The notes: generated from the sequence alone by a model not told the origin. Positions 44,668-64,000 are shown, counted from the stretch's first letter. The stretch: 64,000 nt of DNA from Bacillota bacterium (GCA_023421955.1 JAEZSE010000021.1:9701-73700); one strand, 5' to 3'. Program-made: numbers and translations.

Positions 44668-44693
44668 TATAATGTTGACAAAATAGATGCAAC

Positions 44694-44727
44694 GCCCGAA
44701 AAGCCCGTATTTACGGGCTTTTCGGGC
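44694..44727 (+). terminator. Perfect 14-bp hairpin after the tRNA pair
   Basis: gcccgaaaagcccg / tattta / cgggcttttcgggc. Confidence 0.65.
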
Positions 44728-44814
44728 ACTCTGGCCCTGATTTTCGAAAAGTGCGTTTCCGTAGATGCGCGACGCTACAAAGAGCTTTTTGGTGGGATTC
44801 GAACTTCCACGCAT

Positions 44815-44862
44815 TAAAAAACGGCTGTATGGATGAGAAAATCCATACAGCCGTTTTCTTTT
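44815..44862. terminator. Bidirectional terminator hairpin
   Basis: acggctgtatggat / gagaaa / atccatacagccgt, flanked by an A-run and a T-run. It lies immediately 3' of the minus-strand ORF ending at 44865. Confidence 0.75.
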
Positions 44863-44864
44863 TC

Positions 44865-45182
44865 TTATTTTTCTTTTAGCACATCCAATTGCCTGAGCAA
44901 TTTCACACAGTCGCGCATTCCACGCACATAACAGATGATCAATGTTTCCAGCTCTTTTTGTCCCGTCAGCAGAGCCAGATACTCTGCCACATTTTTTCGC
45001 TGCTCTTCGGTCAAGTGAATATCGCCTTCATGCTCGACTAACATTTCGATCACAGGGCTCAGTTTCGCCCGTCGTTTCACCTCCCGGTTATACACCTTAT
45101 CTGTTTGCATGAAGTGCATTGTGGCTTCATTGCATGCCTCCGCAAAGACGTCCTGCCAAACACATTCAAAGGACAAGCACAA
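44865..45182 (-). CDS. Hypothetical protein (mobile-element associated)
   Basis: 105-aa helical ORF followed by a strong terminator. The start may be the internal M at 45119. Confidence 0.5.
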   Translation of the reverse strand: MCLSFECVWQDVFAEACNEATMHFMQTDKVYNREVKRRAKLSPVIEMLVEHEGDIHLTEEQRKNVAEYLALLTGQKELETLIICYVRGMRDCVKLLRQLDVLKEK

Positions 45183-45277
45183 TCCCTCCCTCCAGTAGTT
45201 TATGAATGTTAGCTTCCGTAGGAGCAGATTGCAAGTCTTTGTTTCATATCGAATTTGGATAGAAAGGAGTCACTTGT

Positions 45278-46219: not shown

Positions 46220-46223
46220 ACCC

Positions 46224-46583
46224 ATGCTGAAGATCACCGCCATCGGCAACCTGACCAACAACGTCGAACTCAAGACCAACGAAACGACCGGCAAGCCCTA
46301 CGCCATCCTGCGCATCGCCAGCGACCGCCGCTACCGGGACAAGGACGGCAACAAGCTGACCGACTTTGTCTCCATCAAGGTGCGCGACGCGCTGGCCGAG
46401 CGCTGCGCGCAGTTCACCTACAAGGGCTGTAAGATCGCCGCCTACGGCGATTTCGAGACGATCACCTTCGACGATCCCTCTCGGCAGCCGGGCTTCCTCA
46501 TCAAGGCCAACGAGGTCGAGTTCCTCTCCCCCCGCAAGGCGGAGGACACCGCGCCCGCCGAACCCGACGAGCAGGCCGAGTAA
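46224..46583 (+). CDS. ssb: Single-stranded DNA-binding protein
   Basis: OB-fold pattern ITAIGNLT..VELK....GKPYA.LRIA...DF.SIKV with an acidic C-terminal tail. Confidence 0.8.
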   Translation: MLKITAIGNLTNNVELKTNETTGKPYAILRIASDRRYRDKDGNKLTDFVSIKVRDALAERCAQFTYKGCKIAAYGDFETITFDDPSRQPGFLIKANEVEFLSPRKAEDTAPAEPDEQAE

Positions 46584-46612
46584 ACTCTGCTAGAAAGGAT
46601 CGAGCTTTCCTC

Positions 46613-47566
46613 ATGAAAAACACAGGAACTGAATATCTGAGCACGGAGCGCACCCCCACGGTGCTGCCCGAGCTTTCGGAGCTGCTGCCGCCGCTCACGG
46701 ATGAGCAGTTTTCCTCTTTGGAAGCCGACATCCTGCAAAACGGCTGCTACAGCCCCGTCATCACCAATGAGGACCTCGTCGTCGTAGACGGCCACAACCG
46801 CATGGACATCTGCGAGGAACACGGCATCCCTTACCGGATCGCCGTGTTCCATTTCGAGGACATGCTGGAAGCCAAGCAATGGGCGCTGGATACGCAGAAA
46901 AGCCGGCGTAACCTTGATACATGGGAGTTGGGCCAGATCGCCCTCAAGCTCAAGCCGGATATCGAGGCCAAGGCTATGGAACGAAAAGCAGCCAACGGCG
47001 GCGACAAGAAAAGCGATGCTGCGAAATCGGAGCCGGCAATGTTGCCGGCTCCGATTTCTGAAAAGGGGGAAACCCGCAAACAGCTTGCTGATGCTGTCGG
47101 CCTAGGTGAACGGACGATGGGCAAGGTCATGCAGATCGACGAAAGTGCCCCCGCAGCCATCAAGGAGGCTCTTAACAAAAAGGAAATCTCGGTTAACAAG
47201 GGCTACGATCTGACCAAGCAGCTTCAGGATGTGCCGGAGGATCAGAGGGAGGCCGCGGCCGCCAAGATTCTGGAAGCCGAAAAGACCGTCCAGGAGAAGG
47301 ACGCCGAGGTCGAACGCAAGGGCCGGATCGCCAAACAGATCTGCACGGCCTTTGAAAAAAGCTTCCTCATGCAACCCACCGAGGAAAACATCCGCATCTG
47401 GATCGATTACGCGGGCATCCGCTCCGACATGGTGGACGATATGATCGGCCAGGCGGAGGAACTCTCGGCCCGTTACGCCCGCTTCGCCGAGATTCTGAAG
47501 GAAATCAAGCCCACGGATTGGAGGGCCACCGATGAAACGGAAACCGACGATACCCCCGAAGGCTAA
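46613..47566 (+). CDS. ParB-like nuclease (ParB/Srx) domain protein
   Basis: N-terminal ParB/Srx motif VVVDGHNR, then a helical, charged C-terminal half. Confidence 0.75.
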   Translation: MKNTGTEYLSTERTPTVLPELSELLPPLTDEQFSSLEADILQNGCYSPVITNEDLVVVDGHNRMDICEEHGIPYRIAVFHFEDMLEAKQWALDTQKSRRNLDTWELGQIALKLKPDIEAKAMERKAANGGDKKSDAAKSEPAMLPAPISEKGETRKQLADAVGLGERTMGKVMQIDESAPAAIKEALNKKEISVNKGYDLTKQLQDVPEDQREAAAAKILEAEKTVQEKDAEVERKGRIAKQICTAFEKSFLMQPTEENIRIWIDYAGIRSDMVDDMIGQAEELSARYARFAEILKEIKPTDWRATDETETDDTPEG

Positions 47567-47948
47567 GGCTGAAATCGCCGACGTCCTCGGGCGGCAGGGC
47601 CGCATCAACAACGACGAGCTGGACTTCATCCTGCGGAAACACCGGGTTCACAGCAACCCGCGAGACCTTCAACGCAGCTACCGGCTGCGCGTGGGCCAGC
47701 GGCTACTCGCCGGCGTCCGGGATGAAACCGGCCGCCGTGAAATCCTCGCCCACCATGACCCGAAAACCGGCGAGGTCGTCTACATCCCCATCGACCTGTG
47801 CAACGAGGAAGACGTGCTGGAGGCCATACAAAACAGGCTTCACAAAACCATTTCCAGCCTGCAGATCTCATCCGGCAAGGCAGCCAACCGGACAAAAAGG
47901 CTGCATTGGCTGAAAAGACCTTTCGAAAGGATGGGACGAAGAAGATGA
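47532..47948 (+). CDS. Hypothetical protein (element backbone)
   Basis: 138-aa basic ORF that overlaps the preceding gene. Its stop overlaps the next start (ATGA). Confidence 0.5.
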   Translation: MKRKPTIPPKAKAEIADVLGRQGRINNDELDFILRKHRVHSNPRDLQRSYRLRVGQRLLAGVRDETGRREILAHHDPKTGEVVYIPIDLCNEEDVLEAIQNRLHKTISSLQISSGKAANRTKRLHWLKRPFERMGRRR

Positions 47949-48514
47949 GCGATACAGGAAACGGCGAAGGCAAGGTATCCGCATACATCGGGCACATCAA
48001 CCGCCACATTTTGCCCTACGTGGATTTCAGCAAGCTCAATGCCTCGTATGCATCCCAGGACAAGGAATACGCCAAGCAAATGCTGGCGTCGCTGCATCAG
48101 GCGTTTGTGCAAACGTATGGCGGCATCGATGTGGACGAATATACCTGCGGTGAAAGCATCATGGCGCCCGCGGTCATCAAGGCGCGAAACAGCGGCGAGC
48201 TCTGCGTGGGCCTGGTCACATTGGACCTGACCTCTTCCGGCGAGCATTGGGGCACCGACTTTTTCACGGAATACGGCGTCATCCCGGACGATGAGATCGA
48301 CCGGGATGTGCTCCGTCCGCGCATCGACCGGTTCATCCCGTATGACTATTGGTATACGGTCCAGATAGAGCGCGACGTCCATGTGGACTTTGATAAAGTT
48401 CCGCAGGACGTTGCCGAACTGCTCAGTTCCTTTGATACAGCCCCTGTGATCGGGTCTCCATCTCATAAACAGACAAAAGCAAAAACAGCAAACAAGGAGG
48501 GCCGCGCCAAATGA
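47945..48514 (+). CDS. Hypothetical protein (element backbone)
   Basis: 189-aa ORF starting MSDTGNGEGK, translationally coupled on both sides (ATGA overlaps). Confidence 0.55.
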   Translation: MSDTGNGEGKVSAYIGHINRHILPYVDFSKLNASYASQDKEYAKQMLASLHQAFVQTYGGIDVDEYTCGESIMAPAVIKARNSGELCVGLVTLDLTSSGEHWGTDFFTEYGVIPDDEIDRDVLRPRIDRFIPYDYWYTVQIERDVHVDFDKVPQDVAELLSSFDTAPVIGSPSHKQTKAKTANKEGRAK

Positions 48515-49428
48515 TAAATGAAGAATTGAGCGAGCTCACAAAAAAGGACAATCTGGTTAGGGGATATGTCTATCCATATCAGGGCATCCGAGACGAGTAC
48601 CTGTTCGAGCATTCCCCGTCCAACATCGCCAACTTCATCATGCTGCACGGGAAAGCGCGGGAGATCATCCTGACCGATATGCTGGACAATCTCATTTTGA
48701 ACACCATCGGCAACTTCATCGACCGCTGCCCGGACCAGACCCTGCTTCCCCGGATTCTGGAACACCTCATCCCCATGCAGACGGGCCAGCGAAAGCCCAA
48801 AGATATCTCGGCTGCCACCATGAAGGAGGTCAATGACTTCTACGAGGTGCAGGCCAGAGCTGCGGAATTCGATCCGATGCCCGAGCCGCCTCCTGATAGA
48901 GAAGCTCCCGCGGACGCCGGCTTCCATACGGTCCGGCTGGTTTCTCCGCTGCGCGTCTCAGCCTTCGATCCCGAGATCGACGAGTTCAACTACACTCCCA
49001 CACCTGTAAGCACCGCAGCTCCCTATGCCGACGAGATCAACCAGGCCATTGCGGGTAGCCTGGCAACAGAAACTCCGCGCGGGCTCATGGACTATTGGGA
49101 CGGTTCGGACGCCGTCGGAGAGAAGGTCGTCAGCCTCAAGCCTTCCATAGACTTTGTCGACGGCGAGCTGATGGGCTTATGCGACATGGCCTGCAAGGAC
49201 GGGCTGACGCCTGGCGAGTTGGCTGAAGTCAAGGATTACCTGAGCGGCCAGTACAGCGACGGCTGGGGTGAAGGGTTTGAACAACGCCCGATCAAAACGC
49301 CGGACGGAGAGCTTTACATCAGCTTCTGGAACTCGGAGAACTTCACCATTCGAACCGAACTGGAGCACAGCCGCGCTCACGCCCCGGTCACGCCAACCAA
49401 GTCGAAGCACCGCGACCCGCAGCGGTGA
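48511..49428 (+). CDS. Hypothetical two-domain protein (element backbone)
   Basis: 305-aa ORF with a Pro-rich linker in the middle. No motif recognised. Confidence 0.55.
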   Translation: MINEELSELTKKDNLVRGYVYPYQGIRDEYLFEHSPSNIANFIMLHGKAREIILTDMLDNLILNTIGNFIDRCPDQTLLPRILEHLIPMQTGQRKPKDISAATMKEVNDFYEVQARAAEFDPMPEPPPDREAPADAGFHTVRLVSPLRVSAFDPEIDEFNYTPTPVSTAAPYADEINQAIAGSLATETPRGLMDYWDGSDAVGEKVVSLKPSIDFVDGELMGLCDMACKDGLTPGELAEVKDYLSGQYSDGWGEGFEQRPIKTPDGELYISFWNSENFTIRTELEHSRAHAPVTPTKSKHRDPQR

Positions 49429-49479
49429 GCCGGCAGCAGCCCATTGGGCCTTCCGGCCCAGGAAAGGAGAATCATCCAT

Positions 49480-50259
49480 ATGGAAACCATCACTTCACCT
49501 CCCATCATGGAGAACGAAAACGTCCGTGAGCTTCTGTCCCTCCTGAAGGAAAACCGCGCTCCCACCATGCAGGATTTGCTCGACGTGCTCACCTATGTCG
49601 CCGAAATGGAACGGCAGTTCGGCGAGGCGCTGAACGAGCTGCAGGGCATACGGCAGGAACTGAGCGCGGCGCAGAAGTACAACCACCCGGCCAAGGCCAC
49701 GCTACAAAACGCGGTCAAAACAGTGGAGGAAAACGTCGCTACCCTGCGGGAACAGCTCGAGGCGATCAAGCAGAGCGTCATCGACGGCTGCAGGAATGCC
49801 GTAGCCGCCTTCAAGGAAAAAGGAATCGCCGCCATGGACAACATCGCCCGGTTCGTCAAAATCAAGCCCATGCTCGAATCCATGCGGGACAACCTGGCGA
49901 AAACGATCCAAACCGAAGACAAGGCGCTGGCCGCCATCGATACGGTCAGCGCCGAATATCACCAGGCCGGACGCCACGTGAAAAACATCATTCGCGCCGT
50001 GGCCGGAAAAGAGGCCGCACAGGACGTCAAGCCTGCCGGCAAGCTAGCGCGGGCGCTGCGCGCGCCTTTCCAACTGCTGCGTGCCGGCCATATGGCCATG
50101 AAGGACACGGTGGGACGGACCATCGGCAAGCTGGCCCAACTGGAGAAGGCCGCGGAGCGCAAGCCCTCGGTGGAAAAGACCATGCGGAAGTACCGCGAAC
50201 AGGCTCAGAAGGCCCCCAAGGCGCGTCCCGCTCCTAACGTCCACAGGGACGCCCGTTAG
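49480..50259 (+). CDS. Coiled-coil hypothetical protein (DUF6674-like)
   Basis: Long heptad-like helical sequence and a basic tail. AGGAGA lies upstream of METITS. Confidence 0.5.
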   Translation: METITSPPIMENENVRELLSLLKENRAPTMQDLLDVLTYVAEMERQFGEALNELQGIRQELSAAQKYNHPAKATLQNAVKTVEENVATLREQLEAIKQSVIDGCRNAVAAFKEKGIAAMDNIARFVKIKPMLESMRDNLAKTIQTEDKALAAIDTVSAEYHQAGRHVKNIIRAVAGKEAAQDVKPAGKLARALRAPFQLLRAGHMAMKDTVGRTIGKLAQLEKAAERKPSVEKTMRKYREQAQKAPKARPAPNVHRDAR

Positions 50260-50269: not shown

Positions 50270-51202
50270 ATGGAACCCATCATCATTGGCATCGACCACG
50301 GCAACGCGGCCATGAAAACCCGCGGCTTCTGTTTCCCCTCCGGCATCGTGGAGTATGAGCACGAGCCATATACCAGCAAAGATGTGCTGGAATACGAGGG
50401 CCGGTTCTACGTCTGCGGCAGCGGCCGCCAGCCGCTCCTCCGGGACAAGACCCAAAACGACAGCTTCTATCTGCTCACACTGGCGGCGCTTGCCAAGGAA
50501 ATCGAAGCCAGGACGGGCGGCGGCAGAGCCTCGGTCATCGTTGCCGTGGGCCTGCCGCTGACCAGTTTTGGCAGAGAAAAAAAGAAGTTCAGGCGCTATC
50601 TCCTGCGCGATGGCGCACCGATCTGCTACCGTTACGAGGGCAAGCCATATGAGGTGACCATCGAAAACGTGCTGCTCTTCCCCCAGGGGTATGCGGCCGT
50701 TCTATCCCACATGGAACTGCTCTCGGGCGAGCCTTCCGTGATCCTCGCGGACATCGGCGGCTGGACGGTGGACGTCATGCGGCTGGACAACGGCATGCCC
50801 GACGCTTCCGCCTGCCGCAGCCTGGAACTCGGCATGATCCGCTGCCTCGATGAGATCGGGGAGCAGATCAGGCGCCGCATGGGGCTGTCACTGACCGCGG
50901 CGCAGATCGAAACCGTGCTGCGGGACGAATCCTGCGGCGTGGGCGAAGGGGCGAAGGAGATCGTCAAAATCGAAGGGCGCCGGTATGCCCAGCGGCTCCT
51001 GTCCGCCATCGCCGAAAGCGGCCTGGACACACGGGCCATGCCCGTCATCTTCATGGGCGGCGGCGCTGCGGTTATGAAGCGCCACGTGACGCCGCAGGAC
51101 GGCCTGTGCCGCGTGATCCCCCTCGAGGACGTATGTGCCAACGCCAAGGGCTATGAGCGTCTTGCGGGCCAATTGTCGCGGGGTGACGGGCATGCCGGAT
51201 GA
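50270..51202 (+). CDS. parM: ParM/StbA-family actin-like segregation ATPase
   Basis: Actin-fold phosphate-1 motif IIGIDHGNAAMK and phosphate-2/adenosine motif ILADIGGWTVDV. Confidence 0.8.
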   Translation: MEPIIIGIDHGNAAMKTRGFCFPSGIVEYEHEPYTSKDVLEYEGRFYVCGSGRQPLLRDKTQNDSFYLLTLAALAKEIEARTGGGRASVIVAVGLPLTSFGREKKKFRRYLLRDGAPICYRYEGKPYEVTIENVLLFPQGYAAVLSHMELLSGEPSVILADIGGWTVDVMRLDNGMPDASACRSLELGMIRCLDEIGEQIRRRMGLSLTAAQIETVLRDESCGVGEGAKEIVKIEGRRYAQRLLSAIAESGLDTRAMPVIFMGGGAAVMKRHVTPQDGLCRVIPLEDVCANAKGYERLAGQLSRGDGHAG

Positions 51203-51503
51203 AAAGCACAGGCTGAACCTCGCGCTGGACATGCGGATCGGGGATCATCGGCAGGCATGGGAAATCCTCTCCGCAATCCCCCGCGGGCGGCGGACGGACG
51301 CCGTCTGCAGGATGCTGATCGAGCATCGGGAGCAGTCCAGCCTCCAGAAGATCATCCAAAAGGCAGTACGGGAGGAACTGCGGGCATACGGCGGGCCGCC
51401 CGCCGGAACGACAACTCCAGAACATGCTCCGAAAGCCGGGGAAGTCAGAGATGACATCCTCGGCTTTTTGGTTGCCTTGCAAAAAGAAGGTGATGAAGAC
51501 TGA
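51192..51503 (+). CDS. Small DNA-binding adaptor candidate (ParR-like)
   Basis: 103-aa ORF overlapping the parM stop. The call rests on position and size only. Confidence 0.4.
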   Translation: MPDEKHRLNLALDMRIGDHRQAWEILSAIPRGRRTDAVCRMLIEHREQSSLQKIIQKAVREELRAYGGPPAGTTTPEHAPKAGEVRDDILGFLVALQKEGDED

Positions 51504-53661: not shown

Positions 53662-53667
53662 AACGGC

Positions 53668-53919
53668 ATGAAGATACGGATCGACGAAGACGTCTACGAG
53701 GGCTCCCCGGCCGATATCATCGACGACCTGCGGGAGCAGAGCCTCCACAAGGACGAATTCCCGAACACAAATAGCTTCCTCCGGTATATGCGCGACAGCT
53801 TCGTCCGTCTGACGGACATGCCATGCGAGCTGCCCGAGGGCGCCATCGACATCCGCGCCAGAGCGATGTTGGAGCAACTGGCGAATATCGACGCCCTCGA
53901 GATTCTGGAGAGCAACTGA
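53668..53919 (+). CDS. Small acidic hypothetical protein (83 aa)
   Basis: GAGAGAGG lies upstream. The stop overlaps the next start (TGATG). Confidence 0.55.
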   Translation: MKIRIDEDVYEGSPADIIDDLREQSLHKDEFPNTNSFLRYMRDSFVRLTDMPCELPEGAIDIRARAMLEQLANIDALEILESN

Positions 53920-55937: not shown

Positions 55938-57246
55938 TACCTTTCGGGATCTGCTGTACAACCGGCAGAACACAAGCTCCTCGGATCTGAGCTACGAGGA
56001 CGTTCTGCGCGACGCGCGGGAATACATCAGCTGCACCCATGCAGATGAGCTGGCCCTGTGCATCGCCCAACGAAACTCCGCCGAGCGGGTGCAAAACCTG
56101 ATCGCCGGCTTCCTGGCCAAACACTACATCCGCCTGAACGGGCTGGACATCGAGGAACTCACCCAGCGGCTGTACTTGGACATGGCCGGCTTCGGCTTCC
56201 TGGAGCAGTATATCTACGACGATTCCATTGAGGAAATCAACGGCAACGCATGGAACGACATCGAGGTCGTCACGCAGACTGGATACCGCAAGGTGCCGGA
56301 GCACTTCGGTTCCCCTGAGCAGGCTACGGACATGATCAAGAAGATGGTGCGCCTGGGCGGGCTGATCCTGGACAATGCCAACCCCGCGGTGGACAGTTTC
56401 CTCACTACGCGCATCCGCATCTCCGCCATGATCCCGCCCATCACCGACCCGGAGCGTGGCGTAGTATTCAGCCTGCGCAAGCAGCAGAAGGCCCGCATCA
56501 CACGGGAGGAACTCATCCGGTCCGGCACCGCCAGCAGCGAGATGCTGGACTTCCTTTCCCTGTGCGTCAACCACGGCGTATCCATCGGCATTGCCGGCAA
56601 GACCGGCTCGGGTAAGACCACCGATCTCTCTTTCTTGCTGAACACGGTTGATACGGACAAGCGCATCTTCGTCATCGAGGAAACCCGCGAGCTGGACCTT
56701 GTCAATGAAGATGAGGACGGCAGGCCGCTGAACCGGGTCATTCACACCTGCACCCGCTCCTCGGAGCTGGAGCAAGCCGACGTGGGCATGACGGAGCTGC
56801 TGCGCAAGTCGCTGCGGTTCCATCCCGATCTGCTGGTACTCGCCGAGATGCGCGGCCAGGAGGCCGTGGACGTCGTGGAGAGCGCCCGCACCGGTCACAC
56901 GGTTCTCACATCGCTGCACGCGAACTCGGCGGCAAAGGCATATACCCGCATCCTGTCCATGTACCAGATGGCGGCGACGTCCATCCCGCCGCAGGTCATT
57001 CTGTCCTTCATCGTTGAAGCATTTCCGATCATGGTTTTCAAGAAACAGATGGCCGACGGCACGCGCCGCCTTATGGAGATCATAGAGGCGCTGGGCGTGC
57101 GGGAGGATGGCGTGCAGACCCAGACGCTATACCGCTTTGACGCACGGCTCGCACGGCATATGCGAGTGAATCCGATCTCTCCGGCGCTGGCGCGGGCATT
57201 GGCCGAGAACGACGCGCCGGAGGAACAAATCGAGCGATTCTCATAG
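55921..57246 (+). CDS. tadA: CpaF/TadA-type type II/IV secretion ATPase
   Basis: Walker A GKTGSGKTT, an Asp box, Walker B and a His box (GHTVLTSLHA). Confidence 0.9.
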   Translation: MIPLPDTFRDLLYNRQNTSSSDLSYEDVLRDAREYISCTHADELALCIAQRNSAERVQNLIAGFLAKHYIRLNGLDIEELTQRLYLDMAGFGFLEQYIYDDSIEEINGNAWNDIEVVTQTGYRKVPEHFGSPEQATDMIKKMVRLGGLILDNANPAVDSFLTTRIRISAMIPPITDPERGVVFSLRKQQKARITREELIRSGTASSEMLDFLSLCVNHGVSIGIAGKTGSGKTTDLSFLLNTVDTDKRIFVIEETRELDLVNEDEDGRPLNRVIHTCTRSSELEQADVGMTELLRKSLRFHPDLLVLAEMRGQEAVDVVESARTGHTVLTSLHANSAAKAYTRILSMYQMAATSIPPQVILSFIVEAFPIMVFKKQMADGTRRLMEIIEALGVREDGVQTQTLYRFDARLARHMRVNPISPALARALAENDAPEEQIERFS

Positions 57247-57260
57247 GAGGTGAACACCCT

Positions 57261-58163
57261 TTGGGCAACCTGATACCAGCCCTGCTGATCACGGCGGGGC
57301 TTTTCCTTTGCCTGCGTATCCTGTCGGGCAGACCGGCTGAGAAAGAAAGAAGCCGGCGCCGGCGCATCCGCTTCCTGTCGGGCAAGCCGCCCGGCAGGTT
57401 GGAGCGGATGGCAAGCGAAGCCGAGCAGATGCTGACGGCTGCCGGCATGAAGGCGCGGCTCCAGACTTATCAACGGCTGGCGCTGGCACTCGGCGTGGCC
57501 GGCTTGCTGGTAGGAGCGGCTATCGGCAATGTGCTGACCGCTGTGGTGCTGGCAGTCGGCCTGGCCGCCATGCCTCTTCTGATCATCCGCATCCGCACAG
57601 GCGACTACCTGCGCGGGTTGTACGAAAACCTGGAATCGGCGATGGGAACCGTCACCAATGCATATGTGGCGGGGGGCGATCTGATCCGCGCAGTGGAGGA
57701 CAGCCTTCGGCTGATTCCATCACCGGTGGACGAGGTGTTTCGGCAGTTCCTGTCCCGCGTCCAGCTCGTGGACGCCAGCGTCCCCAAGGCGCTGGAGGCG
57801 ATGAAAGGTCAAATCGACAACCGCTACTGGACCGATTGGGTCAATACCCTAATCCAGTGCCAGCACGACAAAACGCTGCGTTTCGCCCTGCCGGGAATCG
57901 TGGAGCGGCTGGGCGCCATGCGGCGCATTCGAATGGAGACGGATACATTGCTCCAGAAACAGATCGGCGATTACGTGGTCACGGTGCTCCTGCTGCTGGC
58001 CTCCATCCCGGTCATGGCCTGGATGATGCCCGACTGGTATGAGATGCTGACGCAGACCGTCGCCGGGCAAATCACGCTGGCCGTGGTGCTGGCGTCGGTA
58101 TTCGCCACGGCGTTGTGGATCGGCAGGCTGTACCACCCGAAGGAAGGCGGTGGTAAGGCATGA
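57261..58163 (+). CDS. tadB: Type II secretion system F-domain protein (TadB-like)
   Basis: Polytopic membrane protein with T2SSF layout. TTG start. Confidence 0.75.
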   Translation: MGNLIPALLITAGLFLCLRILSGRPAEKERSRRRRIRFLSGKPPGRLERMASEAEQMLTAAGMKARLQTYQRLALALGVAGLLVGAAIGNVLTAVVLAVGLAAMPLLIIRIRTGDYLRGLYENLESAMGTVTNAYVAGGDLIRAVEDSLRLIPSPVDEVFRQFLSRVQLVDASVPKALEAMKGQIDNRYWTDWVNTLIQCQHDKTLRFALPGIVERLGAMRRIRMETDTLLQKQIGDYVVTVLLLLASIPVMAWMMPDWYEMLTQTVAGQITLAVVLASVFATALWIGRLYHPKEGGGKA

Positions 58164-59038
58164 CCAGCTTGATCCGGGCACTCGCGGTGGCGCTGTTCGC
58201 CGCGGGGCTTTTCTTTTTCCTGTCGCACATCCTCCGTTTTCCATCCCGGAAGACGGCCAAGGCCCTTTCCGGCATCCACGGCAGACCCGGCCTGACCGAG
58301 CGGCTCCAGAAGCTGCTCTTTCCCTTGGCCGCGCTTTTGGCCCGCCTGTTCCCTATGAGCGCCTACCGCGAGAAGCGGATGCGCTCGGACTTCGAGCGGC
58401 TGGACATGACGCGGACACCGAAGGAATACGCCGCGTCGGAGCTGGCCAAGGCGCTTTTGCTGGGCCTGACGGGGTTCATCTTCATTCCGCTGGGTATGCC
58501 CTGGTTCGCGCTGCTGACCGGCATGCTGGGCCTCGTCAGCTATTTCCGCTCCACACAGGGCATCCGCAAACGGGTACAACAGCTTGACCGGGAGATCGAG
58601 GCGGAGATGCCGCGGCTGGTCGAAATGCTTAACCTTTCCTTTCAAGAGAGCCGCGACCTGATTTCTGTGTTCGAGCGGTACCGGCTGGTCTCGGGAAAAG
58701 CCCTGGGCAGCCAACTCGACCGGCTGATCCTGGACCTCAAGACGGGTAACCAGGAGCAGGCGCTCAAGGAAATGGACGCCCGCCTGAATCTGCCGTCCTT
58801 CTCGGCGCTGACGGCGGCGCTCTGCGGTGTGCACAAGGGGATCGACCAGCGCACCAGCCTGCTGGTACTTGAGCAGGACCTCCGCGCTTCCGAGCGGGAG
58901 CGCCTGCGCCGGGAGATGGAAACCGGCGAGAAACGCGTCAAGGCCGCCAGCTTCATCCTGACCATTTTGATGATCGGCCTGTTCATGATCCCCATCGTCC
59001 TGCTGATCCTGCGTAACCTGACAGCCGCCGGGCTGTAA
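58160..59038 (+). CDS. tadC: Type II secretion system F-domain protein (TadC-like)
   Basis: Second T2SSF-type polytopic protein, joined to tadB by an ATGA overlap. Confidence 0.75.
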   Translation: MTSLIRALAVALFAAGLFFFLSHILRFPSRKTAKALSGIHGRPGLTERLQKLLFPLAALLARLFPMSAYREKRMRSDFERLDMTRTPKEYAASELAKALLLGLTGFIFIPLGMPWFALLTGMLGLVSYFRSTQGIRKRVQQLDREIEAEMPRLVEMLNLSFQESRDLISVFERYRLVSGKALGSQLDRLILDLKTGNQEQALKEMDARLNLPSFSALTAALCGVHKGIDQRTSLLVLEQDLRASERERLRREMETGEKRVKAASFILTILMIGLFMIPIVLLILRNLTAAGL

Positions 59039-59113
59039 TACACAACGGTGAAACGCCTCGCAAGGGGCTTTTCATATGCCCTAATTCCAAAAAACTGAAG
59101 GAGGAACCCCCAA

Positions 59114-59329
59114 ATGAAAACCATCTCCAACCGCGTCCGCAACACCTTCCGCCGCCTCATTCACGACCGCCGCGGGGACGGCTACCTCGATCTAGCTATG
59201 AAAATCCTGATCGTCGTCGTCATCGGCGCCGCCATCCTGCTGATCCTCAATACCGCCATGCCCAGCCTGTTCAGCGGTCTCATCGAGAAGGTCAGCGGCG
59301 AGTTGACCAACATCAACGTCCTGCCGTAA
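59114..59329 (+). CDS. Flp-type prepilin candidate (71 aa)
   Basis: Basic leader, then GDGYLD followed by a single hydrophobic helix. GAAGGAGG lies upstream. Confidence 0.65.
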   Translation: MKTISNRVRNTFRRLIHDRRGDGYLDLAMKILIVVVIGAAILLILNTAMPSLFSGLIEKVSGELTNINVLP

Positions 59330-59343
59330 TCACCGGGTGGCCA

Positions 59344-59368
59344 GGGAGGGCCGGGGTCCGGCCCTCCC
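59344..59368 (+). terminator. GC-rich hairpin after the pilin gene
   Basis: Perfect 11-bp stem gggagggccgg / ggt / ccggccctccc with no U-run. Confidence 0.45.
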
Positions 59369-59395
59369 TCCCTTCATGGAAGAAAGGAGCGATAT

Positions 59396-59821
59396 ATGAA
59401 AAGAAGATTTGTCCGGGATTCCACCGGCGAAGGTTACGTCGACGTCGTTATTTCGATGCTGATCATCCTGACCTTTATAGCTTCCCTGTTTCTGTTGTAC
59501 CCGATCTTCACAGCCAAGCAATCACTGGATCAGACGGCGAAGTATGCCGCCCGAACCGTGGAGCTGTATGGTAAGGCGGATGACGCAACCCTCGCGTCTG
59601 TGTTCGACAATGAGAGCATCATGCGGCCCGACGATATTCAAATCCAAACCACATGGTTCAAGGAAGCGGAAAAGAAAATCCAGCTCAAGACAAGCTTCAC
59701 AGTCACGGTATCCAAGACAATCCCCATCACCATCCTGCGCCCGGCGCTGGGTAATCCCGTCGTCTTCCATGTAACCCTGACCGCCTCTGCCCGAGGCATT
59801 TCGGAGGTGTATTGGAAATGA
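59396..59821 (+). CDS. TadE/DUF4320-like pseudopilin
   Basis: The leader ends GEGYVD, followed by a hydrophobic helix and a beta-rich domain. Confidence 0.6.
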   Translation: MKRRFVRDSTGEGYVDVVISMLIILTFIASLFLLYPIFTAKQSLDQTAKYAARTVELYGKADDATLASVFDNESIMRPDDIQIQTTWFKEAEKKIQLKTSFTVTVSKTIPITILRPALGNPVVFHVTLTASARGISEVYWK

Positions 59822-60285
59822 CGCCGCTGATGAAAGACAAAGCAGGCAGCGCCTATCTGTGGGCCGTCTTCATCCTGTTGGCAATGGTCATGCTGGCAGC
59901 CGTTGTATATACCGGCGTGGGGGTTTATGCGAAATATCAGGACGCCGAAACCGAGCTGCAGCGGGCCGCCGTCGTAACGGTGGATGGCAGCATGGAAAAC
60001 GCTGCTGTGCGCGACTTGGTGCTGGATATTCCTACATCCGACGCGGAGGAACTGTTCTACGAAAACCTGCGCGAGCTGGGGTATGAGCAATCTGGTGGTG
60101 ATTGGGCCAAGCGGGTTGACGGCAAAACTGTCTATACCCTGACCGATCTGGAGGTTAAGACAACGGGTAAAACCCTGATGGCCACCGCGATTCTGTCCGT
60201 TCCGCTGCTGTGGGAAATAGGCGGTTCATCTACAGTACGCATCCCCATAAAAGAACGTTCGACCATACTGTACTTGGAGCCTTGA
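59812..60285 (+). CDS. TadE/TadF-like pseudopilin
   Basis: The leader ends GSAYLW, followed by a hydrophobic helix. It overlaps the preceding gene. Confidence 0.55.
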   Translation: MEMTPLMKDKAGSAYLWAVFILLAMVMLAAVVYTGVGVYAKYQDAETELQRAAVVTVDGSMENAAVRDLVLDIPTSDAEELFYENLRELGYEQSGGDWAKRVDGKTVYTLTDLEVKTTGKTLMATAILSVPLLWEIGGSSTVRIPIKERSTILYLEP

Positions 60286-60379: not shown

Positions 60380-60691
60380 TTATCTTGCGATAAGTCCTTT
60401 TACAATGCCCGATATATGGGATAGCGATTGCTCATCCAGCCTCTTCAAATCTGCGATAAGGTTGGCGAGATGTTCCGGGTAGGCGTTCCCTTCATCAAAA
60501 AAGTCGCTGGGAGTAATGTTCAGATACTCGCAAATAGCGAAAAACGCCGGCATGGTGGGAAACACCTTCTTGTTCTCGATCTGATTGATGTAATTCCTGT
60601 TCTGTCCGATTGCCAGGCTCATTTCACGCGCGGAAATATTCTTCGCCGTGCGCAACCGCGCCAGGCGTTCCGCAAAAAACTCTTCATACAT
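60380..60691 (-). CDS. XRE-family helix-turn-helix transcriptional regulator
   Basis: HTH region ISAREMSLAIGQNRNYINQIE. Confidence 0.85.
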   Translation of the reverse strand: MYEEFFAERLARLRTAKNISAREMSLAIGQNRNYINQIENKKVFPTMPAFFAICEYLNITPSDFFDEGNAYPEHLANLIADLKRLDEQSLSHISGIVKGLIAR

Positions 60692-60740
60692 ATTATCATC
60701 TCCTTATGCAATATTCTATCTGGTGGATTAGATAAATCGG

Positions 60741-60792
60741 CCATTTATGAAATGGCATATGCATTGACATGCAAGAAATAAACTTGTATTAT
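60741..60792 (+). promoter_or_regulatory. Promoter with overlapping palindromes (candidate XRE operator)
   Basis: TTGACA (60764-60769), a 17-nt spacer, then TATTAT (60787-60792). The palindromes CCATTTatgAAATGG (60741-60755) and TGCATtgacATGCA flank or overlap the -35 element. Confidence 0.55.
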
Positions 60793-60830
60793 GTGGATTG
60801 TGCAATTTCTAAAATGTTTATGGGGAGTGG

Positions 60831-61310
60831 ATGGCAATGACTACCGGCCAGTTGGACAATGCTTGCTGCGTCACGGGACATCGTGAAATCCCCGCTGAAA
60901 TGCTGGAGTTTGTAGAGAACGAGCTGCGGAAAGAAATCACGCAAGCCATTAAAGACGGTTACACGCATTTCATCTCCGGTTTTGCGCAAGGTATTGATCT
61001 CCTTTTTGTCTCCATAGTGGTTGACCAGATGGTCGAATATCCCGATCTGACACTGGAAGCAGCCATACCATATAGGAAGCGGTTGAGCACTCCGGACCCG
61101 CTTTTTCAACGCCTGCTGGGAAATTGCAAAATCGTAGGTATCCATAGCGCAGAATACAGTGCAGCCTGTTATATGAAGCGCAACCGCGTCATGGTATCTA
61201 ATTCCAAACGTGTCATCGTGGTATATGGCGGACATCAAAGGGGCGGAACGCTGTATACCATGAACTACGCTAATATGCAGCACCGGGAAGTCCGCCTCAT
61301 TCAGATCTGA
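60831..61310 (+). CDS. SLOG-superfamily protein, DUF1273 / YpsA-like
   Basis: It aligns by eye with B. subtilis YpsA (VTGHRE..., HFISGFAQGIDL, EYPDLTLEAAIPY). The start may be the second ATG at 60837. Confidence 0.7.
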   Translation: MAMTTGQLDNACCVTGHREIPAEMLEFVENELRKEITQAIKDGYTHFISGFAQGIDLLFVSIVVDQMVEYPDLTLEAAIPYRKRLSTPDPLFQRLLGNCKIVGIHSAEYSAACYMKRNRVMVSNSKRVIVVYGGHQRGGTLYTMNYANMQHREVRLIQI

Positions 61311-61417
61311 GAACAAAAAATGCATAGCGGTAGCCTGCTGGTTTGAGAGCCGTCACCACGTGGCGGCTTTTACTGCGTCCTGTCGGCATCTGAATCCTGA
61401 AACTCAAAGGAGGGCCT

Positions 61418-64000
61418 ATGAAAAAAAGAAAGAAGTTCATCATGGCTGGGTTGGCTGTGATGGTTGTGCTGGCATCGCTCCTGCTGTTGGTCATGCCGGC
61501 ATTGGCGGTCAATGTCGGAACGCGGAATACGACCAACCTGTTCCAGGCCAACGGTTCTTCGGGCTGGGGTGACCTGAAGACGCCGGAGCACTACATCGTC
61601 GGTAGTTCCCCCGAACAAGTCGCTTACTGCCTTCAGCACAAAAACGACACTCCATCCAACTCACCCTATGGCTCGTCGGACATTCTCGGGAGCTACTCGT
61701 CCCGTGTGCAGACCGGCCTGCGGATTATCCTCGAAAACGGATACCCCTACGCTACCGGCGGTTTGTCGGCAGCGGAAGCGCGGTATGCCACGGCAAACTG
61801 CATACGATTCTGGCTGGCGGAAAATGGCGATTCGTCTCAATACAACTATTCCAACTTTGGCTCATATACGGATGCGCAGCTCCGAAGCATGGCGGCAAGC
61901 GGACAGATCGGGACCAAGATCAGGGCAAAGTCCGGGTATACCGACGTGCTGCAATTCTCTATCGAACTGCTGATCAAGGCACGCGCCCAAGACTTGATGG
62001 ACCATGATATAGGATTGTCCACGCCGTCCATGTCCATTAGCGGCAGTTACTTTGTCGGAACCTCCACGGTCACGCTGACCAACATGAATGGCGGGTATAC
62101 GCTCGATACTTCCGGCCTGCCAAGCGGTTCGAGCGTGACCGGCGACACTGGCAAATCAGGCGATACGCTGACGATCCGAATCCCTATGAATGAGGCCAAC
62201 GCCAATCGAACGTTCAGCGTGGCGGCGACGGGCAAGGATTCCAGGACACGTTCCAATGTCGCCGCATATGCGCCAAACGATAGCGATCTCCAACGGGTAA
62301 TCACCGCGGAACCTACGGAATACAACGCTGCCAAGACCGTATCGGTGTCCTTCGGGACACCGCAAATCTACGCCGATCTTGTAGTGACTGCGCTCAACGC
62401 CGACGCCTCCACCTATGACGCCGGGGATACTATCACGATCAGCGCCACGGTGATGAATCAGGGACTACGGTCGGCAGGCGGGTTTTATGTCGCCTTGACC
62501 TCGCCAGACCTGTCGACGCAGACCAAGTACATCTCATCACTGGCTGTGAACGCTTCCGCCAATGTGACGTTCACCTACACTGCTCCTCAATTCTCCGCCG
62601 ACAGAACCATATCGGTCGTGGCGACCGCAGACTCGACTGGCGCTGTACCGGAGAGCAATGAAGGCAACAATTCGCGCGGCGCTTCCTTCGTGGTCCGTGG
62701 GTTACCCGATCTGATCGTGTCGTCTCTATCCAGTGATGAGACGCAATACACCGCTGGCAACACGATCTCCATCACCGCGACGATCAAGAATCAGGGATAC
62801 AATACCGCGGCCGGGTTCTACGTTTCCTTATCCTCGCCGGATCTGTCGACACAGACCAAGTACATTTCCTCGCTGGCGGCGGGCGCGTCCACAAACATCA
62901 CGTTCACATATGCCGCGCCATCGCTTACGGCAACCAAGGCCATCACGGTCACGGCAACCGCCGACTCGACCGGGGTGGTGATAGAAAGTAATGAAGGCAA
63001 CAACACCCGGAGCGCAACCTTCACCGTGCTGGCGCTCCCGGACCTGATCGTGTCATCGCTATCCAGCGACAAGACGGAATACATCGCAAGCGACACGATC
63101 TCCATAACCGCGACGATCAGAAATCAGGGATATAACTCGGCAAGCGGATTTTATGTCGCCTTGACCTCGCTGGATCTGTCGACGCAGACTAAGTATGTTT
63201 CTTCACTGGCGGCAGGCGCGTCTACCAACGTGATATTCTCCTATACAGCGCCGTCGCTAACGGCAAGTAAAGCCATCACAGTCACGGCCACCGCCGACTC
63301 CACCGGCATCATTGCGGAAACCAACGAGAGTAATAACACCCGGAGCACGACATTCACCGTGCTGGCGCTCCCCGATCTGGTCGTGCCTGCTTTGACCTGC
63401 GACAAGCCTGTCTATGAAACCGGCGATACCGTGACGATCTCCGCAACGGCAAAAAACACCGGGCCGACCACGGCGGTGGCAACCACGGTCCGGCTTACCG
63501 TACCCGGCATAGGGACGTATGCCAAGAGCATCTCCGCACTGGCAGCAGGAGCAAGCCAGACCGTGCAGTTCATGTTCACTGCGCCAACCGCTCTGACTCC
63601 GCAAAGCATTACTATCACAGCTTATGTTGACCCGGACAATACCGTCCAGGAGAGCAATGAAAGCAACAATACCCGCACCGCCATCGTCGCTGTCAACGCA
63701 TTGCGGCCTGATATCGTGGTGACGGACTCCACGGTTACGGACTGGTATGCCGGTATGCAGGTCACAGTCTCGGCAACCGTTCGAAGCCAAACGGCGCAGC
63801 CTGTGCCAACGGTAGCAATCCGGCTTTCCATTGGCGGCGCCTCGTATACCGAGAACATTCCCATCGCCGGAAACGGGAGCAACCTCGCAGTGTTCCGAAT
63901 CACCGTGCCGGCAGCCGGGAACTATGTCGTTCAAATCACCGCGGACCCCAACGATGTACTGGATGAAACGAACGAGAGCAACAACTCCCTGACCAAGAAT
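61418..64000 (+). CDS. Large secreted surface protein with an N-terminal thioester-domain-like region and tandem CARDB repeats (3' end beyond window)
   Basis: AAAGGAGGG RBS and a signal peptide ending PALA. It carries AYCLQ / ILENGYP motifs and at least five CARDB units, each ending E(S/T)NExNN. The frame is open to position 64000 and is absent from the ORF track for that reason. Confidence 0.85.
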   Translation, partial: MKKRKKFIMAGLAVMVVLASLLLLVMPALAVNVGTRNTTNLFQANGSSGWGDLKTPEHYIVGSSPEQVAYCLQHKNDTPSNSPYGSSDILGSYSSRVQTGLRIILENGYPYATGGLSAAEARYATANCIRFWLAENGDSSQYNYSNFGSYTDAQLRSMAASGQIGTKIRAKSGYTDVLQFSIELLIKARAQDLMDHDIGLSTPSMSISGSYFVGTSTVTLTNMNGGYTLDTSGLPSGSSVTGDTGKSGDTLTIRIPMNEANANRTFSVAATGKDSRTRSNVAAYAPNDSDLQRVITAEPTEYNAAKTVSVSFGTPQIYADLVVTALNADASTYDAGDTITISATVMNQGLRSAGGFYVALTSPDLSTQTKYISSLAVNASANVTFTYTAPQFSADRTISVVATADSTGAVPESNEGNNSRGASFVVRGLPDLIVSSLSSDETQYTAGNTISITATIKNQGYNTAAGFYVSLSSPDLSTQTKYISSLAAGASTNITFTYAAPSLTATKAITVTATADSTGVVIESNEGNNTRSATFTVLALPDLIVSSLSSDKTEYIASDTISITATIRNQGYNSASGFYVALTSLDLSTQTKYVSSLAAGASTNVIFSYTAPSLTASKAITVTATADSTGIIAETNESNNTRSTTFTVLALPDLVVPALTCDKPVYETGDTVTISATAKNTGPTTAVATTVRLTVPGIGTYAKSISALAAGASQTVQFMFTAPTALTPQSITITAYVDPDNTVQESNESNNTRTAIVAVNALRPDIVVTDSTVTDWYAGMQVTVSATVRSQTAQPVPTVAIRLSIGGASYTENIPIAGNGSNLAVFRITVPAAGNYVVQITADPNDVLDETNESNNSLTKN
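62372..64000 (+). repeat. Tandem 333-bp coding repeats (CARDB units)
   Basis: Unit boundaries lie at 62372, 62705, 63038, 63371 and about 63704. Units 2 and 3 are nearly identical at the DNA level. Confidence 0.85.

Follow-up and report, generated by a model that had tools for sequence, protein, structure and literature searches.

The left edge of a probable Tn1549-like ICE directly after an intact tRNA-Pro gene in an uncultured Clostridia bacterium

ICEs of the Tn1549 family are common in Faecalibacterium, where some lie at tRNA 3' ends, often in tandem (PMC12084326). Serine integrase triplets on ICEs of the Tn1549/Tn5252 type leave repeats of only 2–8 bp, and those of Streptococcus disrupt the protein genes mutT, traG and hsdM (PMC4701971). 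Classical islands and ICEs with tyrosine integrases, such as ICEclc and P4-like elements, enter the tRNA 3' end, leave the tRNA functional and build up in tandem at hot spots; they put the integrase beside the tRNA, duplicate 15–60 nt of it and are specific for one tRNA species. Here we describe a 64,000-nt stretch of DNA (the window) that crosses the left edge of a large island directly after tRNA-Pro in an uncultured gut-type Clostridia bacterium. The kind of element is ordinary, but its choice of landing sites is unusually broad, with at least ten different tRNA genes used among its relatives, and this integration habit of a Tn1549-like ICE has been undescribed so far.

The housekeeping run ends, as originally predicted, with two tRNA genes (ARAGORN, Rfam), and the features around the junction are as follows.

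44511–44586, + strand: chromosomal tRNA-Thr (CGT; ARAGORN, Rfam 73.9 bits), conserved in the sister species L091
44591–44667, + strand: tRNA-Pro (CGG; ARAGORN, Rfam), the integration target, 100% identical to the L091 tRNA-Pro
44668–44805, + strand: conserved left end (attL, element side), a block of ~140 bp recurring after other tRNAs
44668–44674: 7-nt spacer TATAATG, part of the conserved left end
44675–44691: box TTGACAAAATAGATGCA, part of the conserved left end
44694–44727: 15-bp hairpin, stems 44694–44708 and 44713–44727 with a 4-nt loop, an A-run before and a T-run after
44762–44768: second TAGATGC box, part of the conserved left end
44795–44805: inverted T-loop-like GGGATTCGAAC, part of the conserved left end
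44818–44857: second hairpin (17 bp), terminator-like, at the 3' end of a minus-strand gene

The left boundary is exact to the base, the tRNA-Pro is undamaged, and the block is missing at the sister species' site. In a blastn comparison, window positions 40408–44667 aligned with L091 at 80% identity and the alignment halted at 44667; identity across this shared 4.3-kb flank runs through the CCA of the intact tRNA-Pro, with none beyond. Position 44667, the A of CCA, is the final chromosomal base, and the foreign block begins at 44668, one base past the CCA. The empty site that a search of related strains was proposed to reveal is present in the sister species (L091/L092), which retains ApbE-DAGK-CvpA-tRNA-Thr-tRNA-Pro at 80% DNA identity and lacks the island, its own terminator and an esterase gene occupying the position after tRNA-Pro. 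A strain with the CvpA protein of L091 carries a different element after the same CCA (L093). Chromosome and element adjoin in independent assemblies: one ENA contig, read through the junction, matches the window at 100% identity over their shared length, three others sharing its neighbouring genes were grouped with similar records rather than read, and the NCBI record is known from its listing alone. The ortholog of the sister's flanking esterase in the window's species adjoins sugar-utilisation genes and gives no right chromosomal flank.

Both a terminator hairpin and a conserved end motif come with the element itself. The original prediction had placed a perfect 14-bp hairpin at 44694–44727 as the close of the chromosomal run; the hairpin is real, but it has 15 pairs and sits on the element side of the junction. 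The region 44668–44865 folds with a z-score of -7.8 against shuffles, and across 20 left ends 96.3% of hairpin cells were paired, with compensatory changes in 11 of the 15 pairs and none of 500 shuffles equally good. This hairpin is probably a bidirectional, element-borne terminator that replaces the native one of the tRNA operon; the terminator at the empty L091 site is a different one.

The same end stands behind other tRNA genes in other organisms, which upholds the predicted tRNA-adjacent integrated element. After tRNA-Met in L005 the left-end block is 82.3% identical (blastn), and the L005 element is syntenic with the window over g02–g18; after tRNA-Arg in L085 the block is near-identical, as judged by eye and unscored. 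The end motif, consisting of CCA, 7 nt, TTGACAAAAAAGATGCA and the hairpin, was found after ten tRNA species across Oscillospiraceae and follows the CCA in 20 distinct left ends, while its strict form was absent in 16 of 32 assessable relatives. In separately assembled genomes, 13 related elements lie directly behind an intact tRNA gene, with orientation and spacing unchanged. Elements behind tRNA-Leu (L028) and tRNA-Pro (L035), in different hosts, are 94% identical over 8.9 kb, starting from a shared ACCA.

Inside the boundary, the window contains the following features.

44865–45182, - strand: the element's first gene, a small ORF of 103–105 aa, called in L001, with a homolog after the same end block in L085
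45278–46219, + strand: DUF3991 + Toprim primase-like protein (Pfam), opening a long plus-strand operon
46224–46583, + strand: SSB (Pfam)
46613–47566, + strand: ParB-like nuclease/HTH protein (Pfam; PHROGs ParB-like families, E ~1e-12)
47532–50259, + strand: three family-less proteins (138, 189 and 305 aa) and DUF6674, order conserved in L005 and L106
49480–50259, + strand: DUF6674
50270–51202, + strand: ParM/Alp-like actin (Pfam ALP_N, MreB-like_C)
within 50270–51503, + strand: 113-aa protein, after ParM
51518–52714, + strand: Dcm C5-cytosine methylase (Pfam E 8.5e-74)
52711–53661, + strand: Amidoligase_2 (Pfam E 2.1e-66)
within 51518–54458, + strand: 83-aa protein between amidoligase and GGACT
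53919–54458, + strand: GGACT/AIG2-like cyclotransferase (Pfam E 1.5e-14)
54475–60285, + strand: Tad/Flp-type pilus module (Pfam; best PDB match of CpaF)
54475–55248, + strand: RcpC/CpaB (Pfam RcpC and SAF domains)
55930–57246, + strand: CpaF/TadA ATPase (T2SSE E 4.7e-30; best PDB match CpaF, E 3.8e-37)
57261–58163 and 58160–59038, + strand: two membrane proteins in the TadB/TadC positions, assigned by position alone
within 54475–60285, + strand: DUF6133 protein of 71 aa (Pfam), candidate pilin by position
within 54475–60285, + strand: DUF4320 and 155-aa proteins, at the end of the Tad module
60380–60691, - strand: XRE-type HTH regulator (Pfam HTH_3/HTH_19)
60837–61310, + strand: YpsA/SLOG protein with a DprA-like fold (Pfam)
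61419–64000, + strand: 5' part of a 1074-aa secreted CARDB-repeat surface protein, running past the window end

Pfam confirmed the predicted set of Toprim, SSB, ParB, ParM, Dcm, amidoligase and Tad genes and added DUF3991, GGACT and CpaF. About 10 of the 25 ORFs belong to no family that could be recognised, so synteny, and not annotation, carries the broader claim that from 44865 onward every gene is of mobile-element type. The product of 44865–45182 matched no family in Pfam, NCBIfam or PHROGs. The DUF3991 + Toprim protein has 202 relatives in GTDB species genomes, nearly all of them Oscillospiraceae-type. Within the Tad module, a TadZ-like P-loop protein showed weak ParA/CpaE matches, and the proteins at 57261–58163 and 58160–59038 gave no T2SSF match even at E values up to 5 and no PDB match. 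From these families, the Toprim, SSB, ParB, ParM, Dcm and amidoligase/GGACT genes would serve establishment, maintenance and anti-restriction, and the Tad pilus with the CARDB adhesin may provide surface functions in mating-pair formation or colonisation.

The window's contig extends 8.9 kb further, to ~72.9 kb in window numbering, which raises the lower bound on the island from the predicted 19 kb to at least 28 kb. Beyond the window lie an A24 prepilin peptidase (148 aa, just past the end), MetK, DUF7768, an N6 methylase, Fic and the start of DUF6329; by the gene order of relatives, the contig breaks off within the gene that opens the transfer region. Of the assemblies, two from ENA and one from Logan were followed beyond the window, and all three stop ~2.2 kb after DUF7768. 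As predicted, the window holds no integrase, relaxase, VirD4 or VirB4, and no relaxase, coupling protein or VirB4-type T4SS occurs in the 8.9-kb extension either. Downstream transfer genes were instead found in relatives with the same gene order. In L090, whose DUF7768 is 70% identical, MobC, a PF03432 relaxase, DUF3801, VirD4, TrbC, TrbL and PrgI follow, with family matches to T4SS-DNA_transf, TrbL_2 and PrgI. One relative, an IMG/VR contig, was walked end to end, ~53 kb from its tRNA-Arg. Its relaxase, likewise preceded by MobC, is 65% identical to that of L090, tblastn pairs its T4CP, TrbC and TrbL with those of L090, and it also encodes an NlpC/P60 hydrolase, together with VirB4 (776 aa) and PrgI, which are named by size, position and N-terminal sequence only. 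The predicted clostridial ICE-type backbone is supported; the host and relatives are Oscillospiraceae-type Clostridia and not Clostridium.

The gene content of these relatives, MobC with a PF03432 relaxase, VirD4 (PF02534), TrbL/VirB6-like, PrgI/VirB3-like and VirB4 proteins and a cell-wall hydrolase, resembles that of Tn1549-family (MOBP7) ICEs (PMC12084326; PMC4701971). As with those ICEs, the relatives are found in the chromosome at tRNA 3' ends, stacked in tandem with other islands, and their cargo includes methylases and further anti-restriction genes. Unlike in our element, 'Tad' and 'pilus' appear nowhere in the main text on the Faecalibacterium ICEs (PMC12084326). Neither topoisomerase III nor the DUF4315/DUF4366 backbone genes of the Faecalibacterium elements turned up in the sequence read here, which for the window's element stops at the start of the transfer region. 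To our knowledge, neither the amidoligase/GGACT pair nor the conserved end motif after the CCA has been described for Faecalibacterium ICEs.

At the far end of the IMG/VR relative, ~470 nt from the contig end, are two proteins with Resolvase, Recombinase and Zn_ribbon domains and one with Recombinase only. The recombinase expected at the far end was thus located as two large serine recombinases in a single relative, whose Toprim is just 57% identical to that of the window, and none lies in the window. The predicted direct repeat of the junction was not recovered; a junction repeat longer than a crossover of 2 bp (up to 8 bp) was absent from 26 kb of the window's element and from the IMG/VR relative, whose attR was not found in the contig, read except for its last 175 nt. 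If integration is by serine recombinases, no direct junction repeat is expected. The relative's cluster resembles the Streptococcus triplets (PMC4701971) in its domains, its position at one extremity and its very short or undetectable repeats. It differs in comprising two full recombinases and one truncated one, and in that insertion here falls one base past an intact tRNA gene, with many tRNA species used.

From all of this, we consider 44668–64000 very probably the left 19.3 kb of an ICE inserted right after the CCA of tRNA-Pro (CGG), with a transfer module termed Tn1549-like from the genes of relatives rather than of the window's own element. Judging from syntenic relatives, its right part would carry MobC, a MOBP-type relaxase, a VirD4 coupling protein and a Gram-positive type IV secretion system, and its right end would be a cluster of large serine recombinases. 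These may cut with a two-base crossover at or beside the CCA, which would produce ends without a tRNA fragment or long direct repeat. We tentatively propose, as a possibility that we would not yet favour, that the serine-recombinase module of this Oscillospiraceae ICE family recognises features common to all tRNA genes, namely the T-arm and the CCA end, and inserts one base past the CCA of almost any tRNA gene, leaving the gene undamaged and supplying a new terminator. If true, this would be a generalist 'safe-harbour' integration, unlike the one-gene specificity known for ICE serine and tyrosine integrases.

The strongest alternative, which we regard as unlikely, is an ICE using a classical tRNA-targeting tyrosine integrase, with the crossover inside the tRNA gene and the element's 3'-end copy restoring it. 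This is the commonest way in which islands use tRNA genes (PMC4701971, introduction), and some loci fit it: in L038 a tyrosine integrase adjoins tRNA-Arg with a repeated tRNA 3' end 6 kb away, in L093 the start of an integrase-like ORF adjoins tRNA-Pro, and L006, L024, L025 and L032 show a partial tRNA 3' fragment ahead of the element end. In L032, L038 and L104 a later island or prophage that entered between tRNA and element accounts for the partial fragment; in L006, L024 and L025 such an intervening island was not delimited. Had the element supplied the acceptor 3' strand, chimeric tRNAs would be expected, whereas near-identical elements sit at different tRNA species that are all intact. 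Moreover, the fully walked relative has a tyrosine integrase at neither end and serine recombinases instead, no integrase lies on the tRNA side here, no tRNA duplication was found, including in the 26 kb searched for the junction repeat, and ten tRNA species are used rather than one.

Less probable still is that the block is a decayed element of this kind that has lost its mobility and is retained because of its Tad pilus and adhesin. Related bacteria often harbour ICE remnants (PMC12084326), the sequenced part of this copy holds no recombinase or transfer gene, and the block occupies the same site in all five assemblies of the species. Against decay, no pseudogenes are visible among the 25 ORFs, which are closely packed into one uninterrupted operon, and the order of genes stays intact as far as the gene that opens the transfer region. 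Since the block is absent from the sister species, it was acquired recently, and relatives that are still 94% identical have changed tRNA site. A prophage or phage-plasmid in place of a conjugative element is highly improbable: IMG/VR lists the closest fully walked relative among its viral genomes, phages also carry ParB, SSB, Dcm and amidoligase, and in L103 phage-like genes come after a copy of the end motif, but capsid, terminase, portal and tail genes are absent from 28 kb of the element and 53 kb of the relative, relatives carry relaxase, VirD4, VirB4, TrbL and PrgI in their place, and PHROGs matches are confined to ParB-like and weak ones. An assembly chimera joining plasmid and chromosome at a tRNA-like repeat can practically be set aside, for while one Logan contig breaks within tRNA-Thr and a related module exists on a genuine 72.5-kb plasmid, several independent assemblies from different samples and assemblers share genes across the junction, including the ENA contig read through it, and the 13 elements behind intact tRNA genes were assembled separately.

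The pilus region of our probable ICE has counterparts on Tad/Flp plasmids, namely the linear plasmids of Cutibacterium acnes (PMC5696575) and the Oscillospiraceae plasmid CP141730.1, in which a Tad locus (CpaB, CpaF/TadA, TadB/C-like proteins, a small gene in the pilin position and an A24 peptidase) likewise lies beside conjugation genes and a large surface protein. Those are free replicons whereas this element is integrated, and TadA of the Clostridia Tad plasmids is only 33–38% identical to that of the window; in all of them the Tad pilus has at most a putative role in transfer. CP141730.1 shares the same Tad module and also has DUF4320, DUF3991-Toprim, TrbL and VirB4. As for the window's own surface protein, the full gene in L003 encodes CARDB and DUF8195 domains, and the gene contains 333-bp tandem units at 62705–63385.

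The foreign DNA begins directly behind a pair of tRNA genes, the only two that ARAGORN called in the whole 64-kb window. Rfam agreed on both and found no other RNA in the window:

44511-44586, + strand, tRNA-Thr(CGT)
44591-44667, + strand, tRNA-Pro(CGG)

The genes 5' of the junction are chromosomal in character (among them a glycerol-3-phosphate-dehydrogenase-like set, a GGDEF/HD-GYP protein, ApbE, diacylglycerol kinase and CvpA). Exact-protein look-ups recovered this gene arrangement in further assemblies, and one ENA contig among them was 100% identical to the window across an overlap of 13.6 kb. The element occurs in the metagenomes ERZ27268806, ERZ24910752 and SRR13243524. Two sister-species contigs (L091 and L092), reached through a CvpA 88% identical to that of the window, carry ApbE, diacylglycerol kinase, a 368-aa protein, CvpA, tRNA-Thr and tRNA-Pro in this order. 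The alignment of L091 with window 40408-44667 (80% identity, blastn) stops at 44667, the A of CCA, and beyond it L091 has its own terminator hairpin followed by an esterase gene on the opposite strand. The element is thus absent from the L091 site, and the junction had been placed correctly to the base in the original prediction. A further contig with the same CvpA as L091 (L093:1139-1468) has yet other sequence after the same tRNA-Pro CCA, opening with an ORF (MSKARKLPSGSWRCE...) whose start resembles a tyrosine-integrase N-terminus. Comparison of the window, L091 and L093 therefore identifies this tRNA-Pro 3' end as a hot spot for multiple elements, with at least three states, and sets the start of the window's element at 44668. 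On the chromosomal side, G+C drops to 0.48 at window 36001-38000, against 0.53-0.63 nearby, over an 822-aa CHASE4/PAS/GGDEF/HD-GYP gene. A promoter-like site spans the junction itself (window 44645-44673), with a -35 TTCAAA in the tRNA-Pro T-loop, a 17-nt spacer, and a -10 TATAAT (44668-44673) made of the element's first bases; it is probably due to chance, because the 7-nt spacer varies among other lineages.

The 198 nt 3' of the tRNA fold with a z-score of -7.8 relative to shuffled copies, and two hairpins lie there:

44694-44708 / 44713-44727, hairpin 1, 15 pairs with a 4-nt loop
44818-44857, hairpin 2, 17 bp

Hairpin 1 is preceded by an A-run and has a T-run on its far side. Across 20 distinct left ends it is conserved with changing sequence: 96.3% of cells are paired, two-sided changes occur in 11 of the 15 pairs, and none of 500 shuffles was as good. 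As a control, sliding the partners by 1-3 columns gave pairing of only 31-55%. On the most economical reading, the element brings its own terminator, probably bidirectional, to replace that of the tRNA operon upstream of its insertion. This hairpin (44694-44727) had already been noticed and is real, but it had been assigned to the chromosome and instead belongs to the element side of the junction. Several smaller features accompany it. A TAGATGC box forms a direct repeat (44684-44690 and 44762-44768), and a relative from IMG/VR has three TAGATAYG copies within the first 150 nt of its element end (L106:7770-7900); both are candidate protein-binding sites. At 44795-44805 there is an inverted T-loop-like GGGATTCGAAC. 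A small inverted repeat around the TTGACA...AGATG box was discarded as inconsistent from lineage to lineage.

Pfam matches 3' of the junction comprise DUF3991 with Toprim, SSB, DUF6674, a ParM/Alp actin, Dcm, Amidoligase_2, GGACT, RcpC/CpaB, a T2SSE ATPase, DUF6133 and DUF4320. Together with PHROGs, which backed the ParB-like call, and the nearest solved structures of the ATPase, which are CpaF, they bear out the gene list drawn up from sequence alone. For about ten ORFs, Pfam, NCBIfam and PHROGs gave no family. Within the Tad module, CpaB, CpaF, the A24 peptidase and DUF4320 are supported and the TadZ-like protein is weak. The membrane proteins in the TadB/TadC positions (57261-59038) matched neither T2SSF, with E values up to 5 allowed, nor any PDB sequence, and may represent a highly divergent platform family. 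Matches to the DUF6133 protein in the pilin position were limited to contigs of the same element. As originally stated, the 64-kb window holds no integrase, relaxase, VirD4 or VirB4. Beyond it, the element's gene order continues in ENA contigs as follows:

full 1074-aa CARDB surface protein
Spo0E-like protein, then NYN-domain protein
A24 prepilin peptidase
full SAM synthetase, MetK (L003:2061-3275, about window 67.4-68.6 kb)
small HTH protein, then DUF7768
N6/N4 methylase, then Fic protein
DUF6329 gene, first 46 codons only

The assemblies read stop inside the DUF6329 gene at about window 72.9 kb, roughly 2.2 kb past DUF7768, which gives the element a length of at least 28 kb.

Relatives extend this order into transfer genes. 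A 67-kb Logan contig (L090) repeats the order of the window and its extension with shared proteins 66-94% identical, apart from the weaker A24 peptidase (46%) and small HTH protein (52%), and continues with DUF6329, MobC/NikA, a PF03432 relaxase, DUF3801, a VirD4-type coupling protein, a TrbC-like protein, TrbL_2 and PrgI. The L090 DUF6329 protein has an N-terminus that matches the truncated ORF with which the window's contig ends. A 64.5-kb IMG/VR contig (IMGVR_UViG_3300029719_000310), which shares the window's gene order between Toprim and GGACT (36-70% identity), could be read from end to end:

tRNA-Arg(ACG) and a left end of variant form (three TAGATAYG boxes, a hairpin)
Toprim, SSB, ParB, ParM, Dcm, amidoligase, GGACT
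2133-aa surface protein, MetK, DUF7768, methylase, DUF6329
MobC, relaxase, DUF3801, VirD4, TrbC, TrbL, XRE regulator, YpsA, putative PrgI, putative VirB4, NlpC/P60 hydrolase
DUF4391 and helicase pair
UmuC-like polymerase, M78 peptidase, sigma-70 region-4 protein, DinG-like helicase
two full large serine recombinases flanking a Recombinase-only protein, about 470 nt from the contig end

The recombinase end lies about 53 kb from tRNA-Arg. In the stretch covered, from tRNA-Arg onward, no phage structural genes were found, and the contig, filed as a viral genome, looks like a misclassified ICE. PLSDB and the phage collections held no close relative, the top plasmid matches being 24-40% identical. 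A Subdoligranulum record (OY725857.1) contains a distant relative (Toprim 31%), with no tRNA within the 94 kb read; a candidate 'triple recombinase' in it proved to be ABC transporters, and further right BLAST indicated two tyrosine-recombinase-like ORFs. For the window itself, the original interpretation holds: the foreign block is very likely the left end of an integrated conjugative element.

The same end recurs behind other tRNA genes. Scanning the Toprim protein against one genome per GTDB species returned 202 relatives, nearly all in Oscillospiraceae-type Clostridia (Oscillibacter, Pseudoflavonifractor, Acutalibacter, Flavonifractor and Intestinimonas among them), with more than one copy in several genomes. 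In the closest (L005; Toprim 81% identical, syntenic from Toprim through the TadB-like gene), the block behind a tRNA-Met is 82% identical to window 44664-44805. A metagenome pattern search gave a contig (L085) in which the end block, with a homolog of the element's first gene, comes after tRNA-Arg(ACG). The 140 bp 3' of the tRNA are part of the element. The join common to these two and the window reads CCA, TATA(A/G)TG, then TTGACAAAA, and the left end has the short signature CCA, 7 nt, TTGACAAAAAAGATGCA, hairpin. Of 32 assessable relatives, 16 have a looser motif (CCA, seven bases, TTGAC(A/G)AAAAAGATGCA, hairpin) 5' of the Toprim gene. The motif stands immediately 3' of tRNA genes with ten anticodons (Pro-CGG, Pro-GGG, Arg-ACG, Arg-CCG, Met-CAT, Val-CAC, Ser-GGA, Ser-GCT, Leu-CAG and Leu-TAG), and tRNA and Toprim gene always share a strand. 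Two elements with Toprim proteins 97% identical share 94% DNA identity over 8.9 kb, which begins at the common ACCA of a tRNA-Leu(TAG) in one genome and a tRNA-Pro(CGG) in another. This pair indicates that a single lineage inserts at different tRNA genes, the join falling always at CCA. The tRNA-Leu member (L028) lies on an 813-kb scaffold of Oscillibacter sp. 1-3.

Some loci have a partial tRNA 3' fragment in front of the element end. In L032 and L038, and likewise in the IMG/VR contig L104, the cause is a later island or prophage that inserted into the tRNA and displaced the older element downstream; for L006, L024 and L025 we assume the same. The tandem at L038:1663-7766 runs from tRNA-Arg through a 6-kb islet that encodes a tyrosine integrase and transporters to an exact repeat of the tRNA-Arg 3' end and the ICE left end. 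In L104, the end motif and hairpin directly follow a prophage's partial tRNA-Pro repeat, and in another IMG/VR contig (L103:1564-2100) they lie beside an IS and phage-like genes. Different kinds of mobile element may share this end module, or it may have been rearranged between them.

The insertion thus lies exactly after CCA, the tRNA is intact, and the conserved end has its own terminator. Serine recombinases exchange strands at a 2-bp crossover, and a 17-nt conserved box sits 8-24 nt from the join, which we take to be the expected half-site place for large serine recombinases. Enzymes of this type encoded at the element's far end would carry out insertion directly after CCA, and we lean, if only slightly, towards integration by this route; the link comes from one relative, with a Toprim 57% identical. 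Serine-recombinase triplets of Firmicutes ICEs leave repeats of only 2-8 bp (PMC4701971). The original prediction had expected a direct repeat of the junction at the far end. Searching the window plus 6.7 kb of extension with blastn-short yielded only chance 10-11-mers, and the right end of the window's element lies beyond this stretch. In the IMG/VR relative, direct or inverted matches to the left end did not exceed shuffled controls in the last 300 nt read, which reach to 175 nt from the contig end. A scan with the recombinase matched phage recombinases only. The lack of a junction repeat in both argues against the rival, a classical tyrosine integrase with its crossover inside the tRNA. Such an enzyme would need an acceptor 3' strand supplied by the element and would leave chimeric tRNAs among near-identical elements, whereas all tRNAs are intact; moreover, neither end of the one relative that is complete shows a tyrosine integrase, and it encodes serine recombinases instead. 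No right junction could be called through the esterase that flanks the empty site in L091. In the window's species (L095:6673-7175), the genes next after the ortholog of this esterase are two GH4 glycosidase genes, LysR and an ABC sugar transporter, an arrangement that reflects either far-end cargo of the element or a rearranged locus.

The element is ordinary in kind, and its choice of site is the interesting part. Known serine-integrase triplets have targets inside protein genes (PMC4701971), whereas the window's element lies directly after a tRNA. The relatives' module shares the marks of Tn1549-family ICEs of Faecalibacterium, namely MobC, a PF03432 relaxase, a PF02534 coupling protein, VirB4 and VirB6/VirB3-like proteins (PMC12084326), which would place the relatives, specifically, in that family. 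Some Faecalibacterium ICEs are named after tRNA-Arg, one remnant lies at a tRNA-Leu 3' end, and tandem arrangement is frequent (PMC12084326). In the literature, we found neither the Tad-bearing variant nor the end motif described, nor a single lineage at many tRNA species, and searches on the DUF names and on Tad-bearing ICEs in Clostridia gave no description of this family. A 72.5-kb Oscillospiraceae plasmid has the same combination of A24 peptidase, CpaB, ATPase, two membrane proteins and small pilin-position gene, along with DUF4320, a 1610-aa surface protein, DUF3991-Toprim, TrbL and VirB4. Giant surface proteins of 1751-2172 aa replace the Tad module in other relatives. With either a Tad module or a giant surface protein beside the transfer genes, a surface-contact function travelling with them seems to be a constant of the group. 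Mating and colonisation are candidate roles, the same question as for the Tad plasmids of Cutibacterium acnes (PMC5696575), and the regular pairing of Tad pilus or giant adhesin with transfer genes offers a testable idea on the mating contacts of Gram-positive elements.

Conjugative elements make up about 20% of the genetic content of four Faecalibacterium genomes (PMC12084326). Large conjugative islands are a substantial genome share in abundant gut Clostridia. To our knowledge, their ends are seldom defined; a base-exact left end with a short signature allows related elements to be found in draft genomes and metagenomes. If one lineage does use many tRNA genes through serine recombinases, this would explain several copies within one genome, and the recombinases would have a conserved, non-disruptive target in every bacterium, of practical interest for genome engineering.

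Some further features stand apart. CARDB repeats in the 1074-aa surface protein correspond to tandem units of 333 bp (78% identical) at 62705-63385. The element-borne MetK is flanked by element-type genes, is conserved in three relatives, and may supply the element's methylases. Three assemblies of the element (two ENA, one Logan) and one of a related element break about 130-140 nt into the DUF6329 gene, which precedes MobC and the relaxase (L086:12941-13078, the start of L003, and L087:12927-13055); a repeat, strain variation or an invertible segment could account for this. The sample that gave L003, a contig of the window's element, also contains a second related element (L089, ERZ27268806 k141_53377) with a DUF7768 65% identical and the same gene order, and the window's species or community therefore harbours at least two members of the family.
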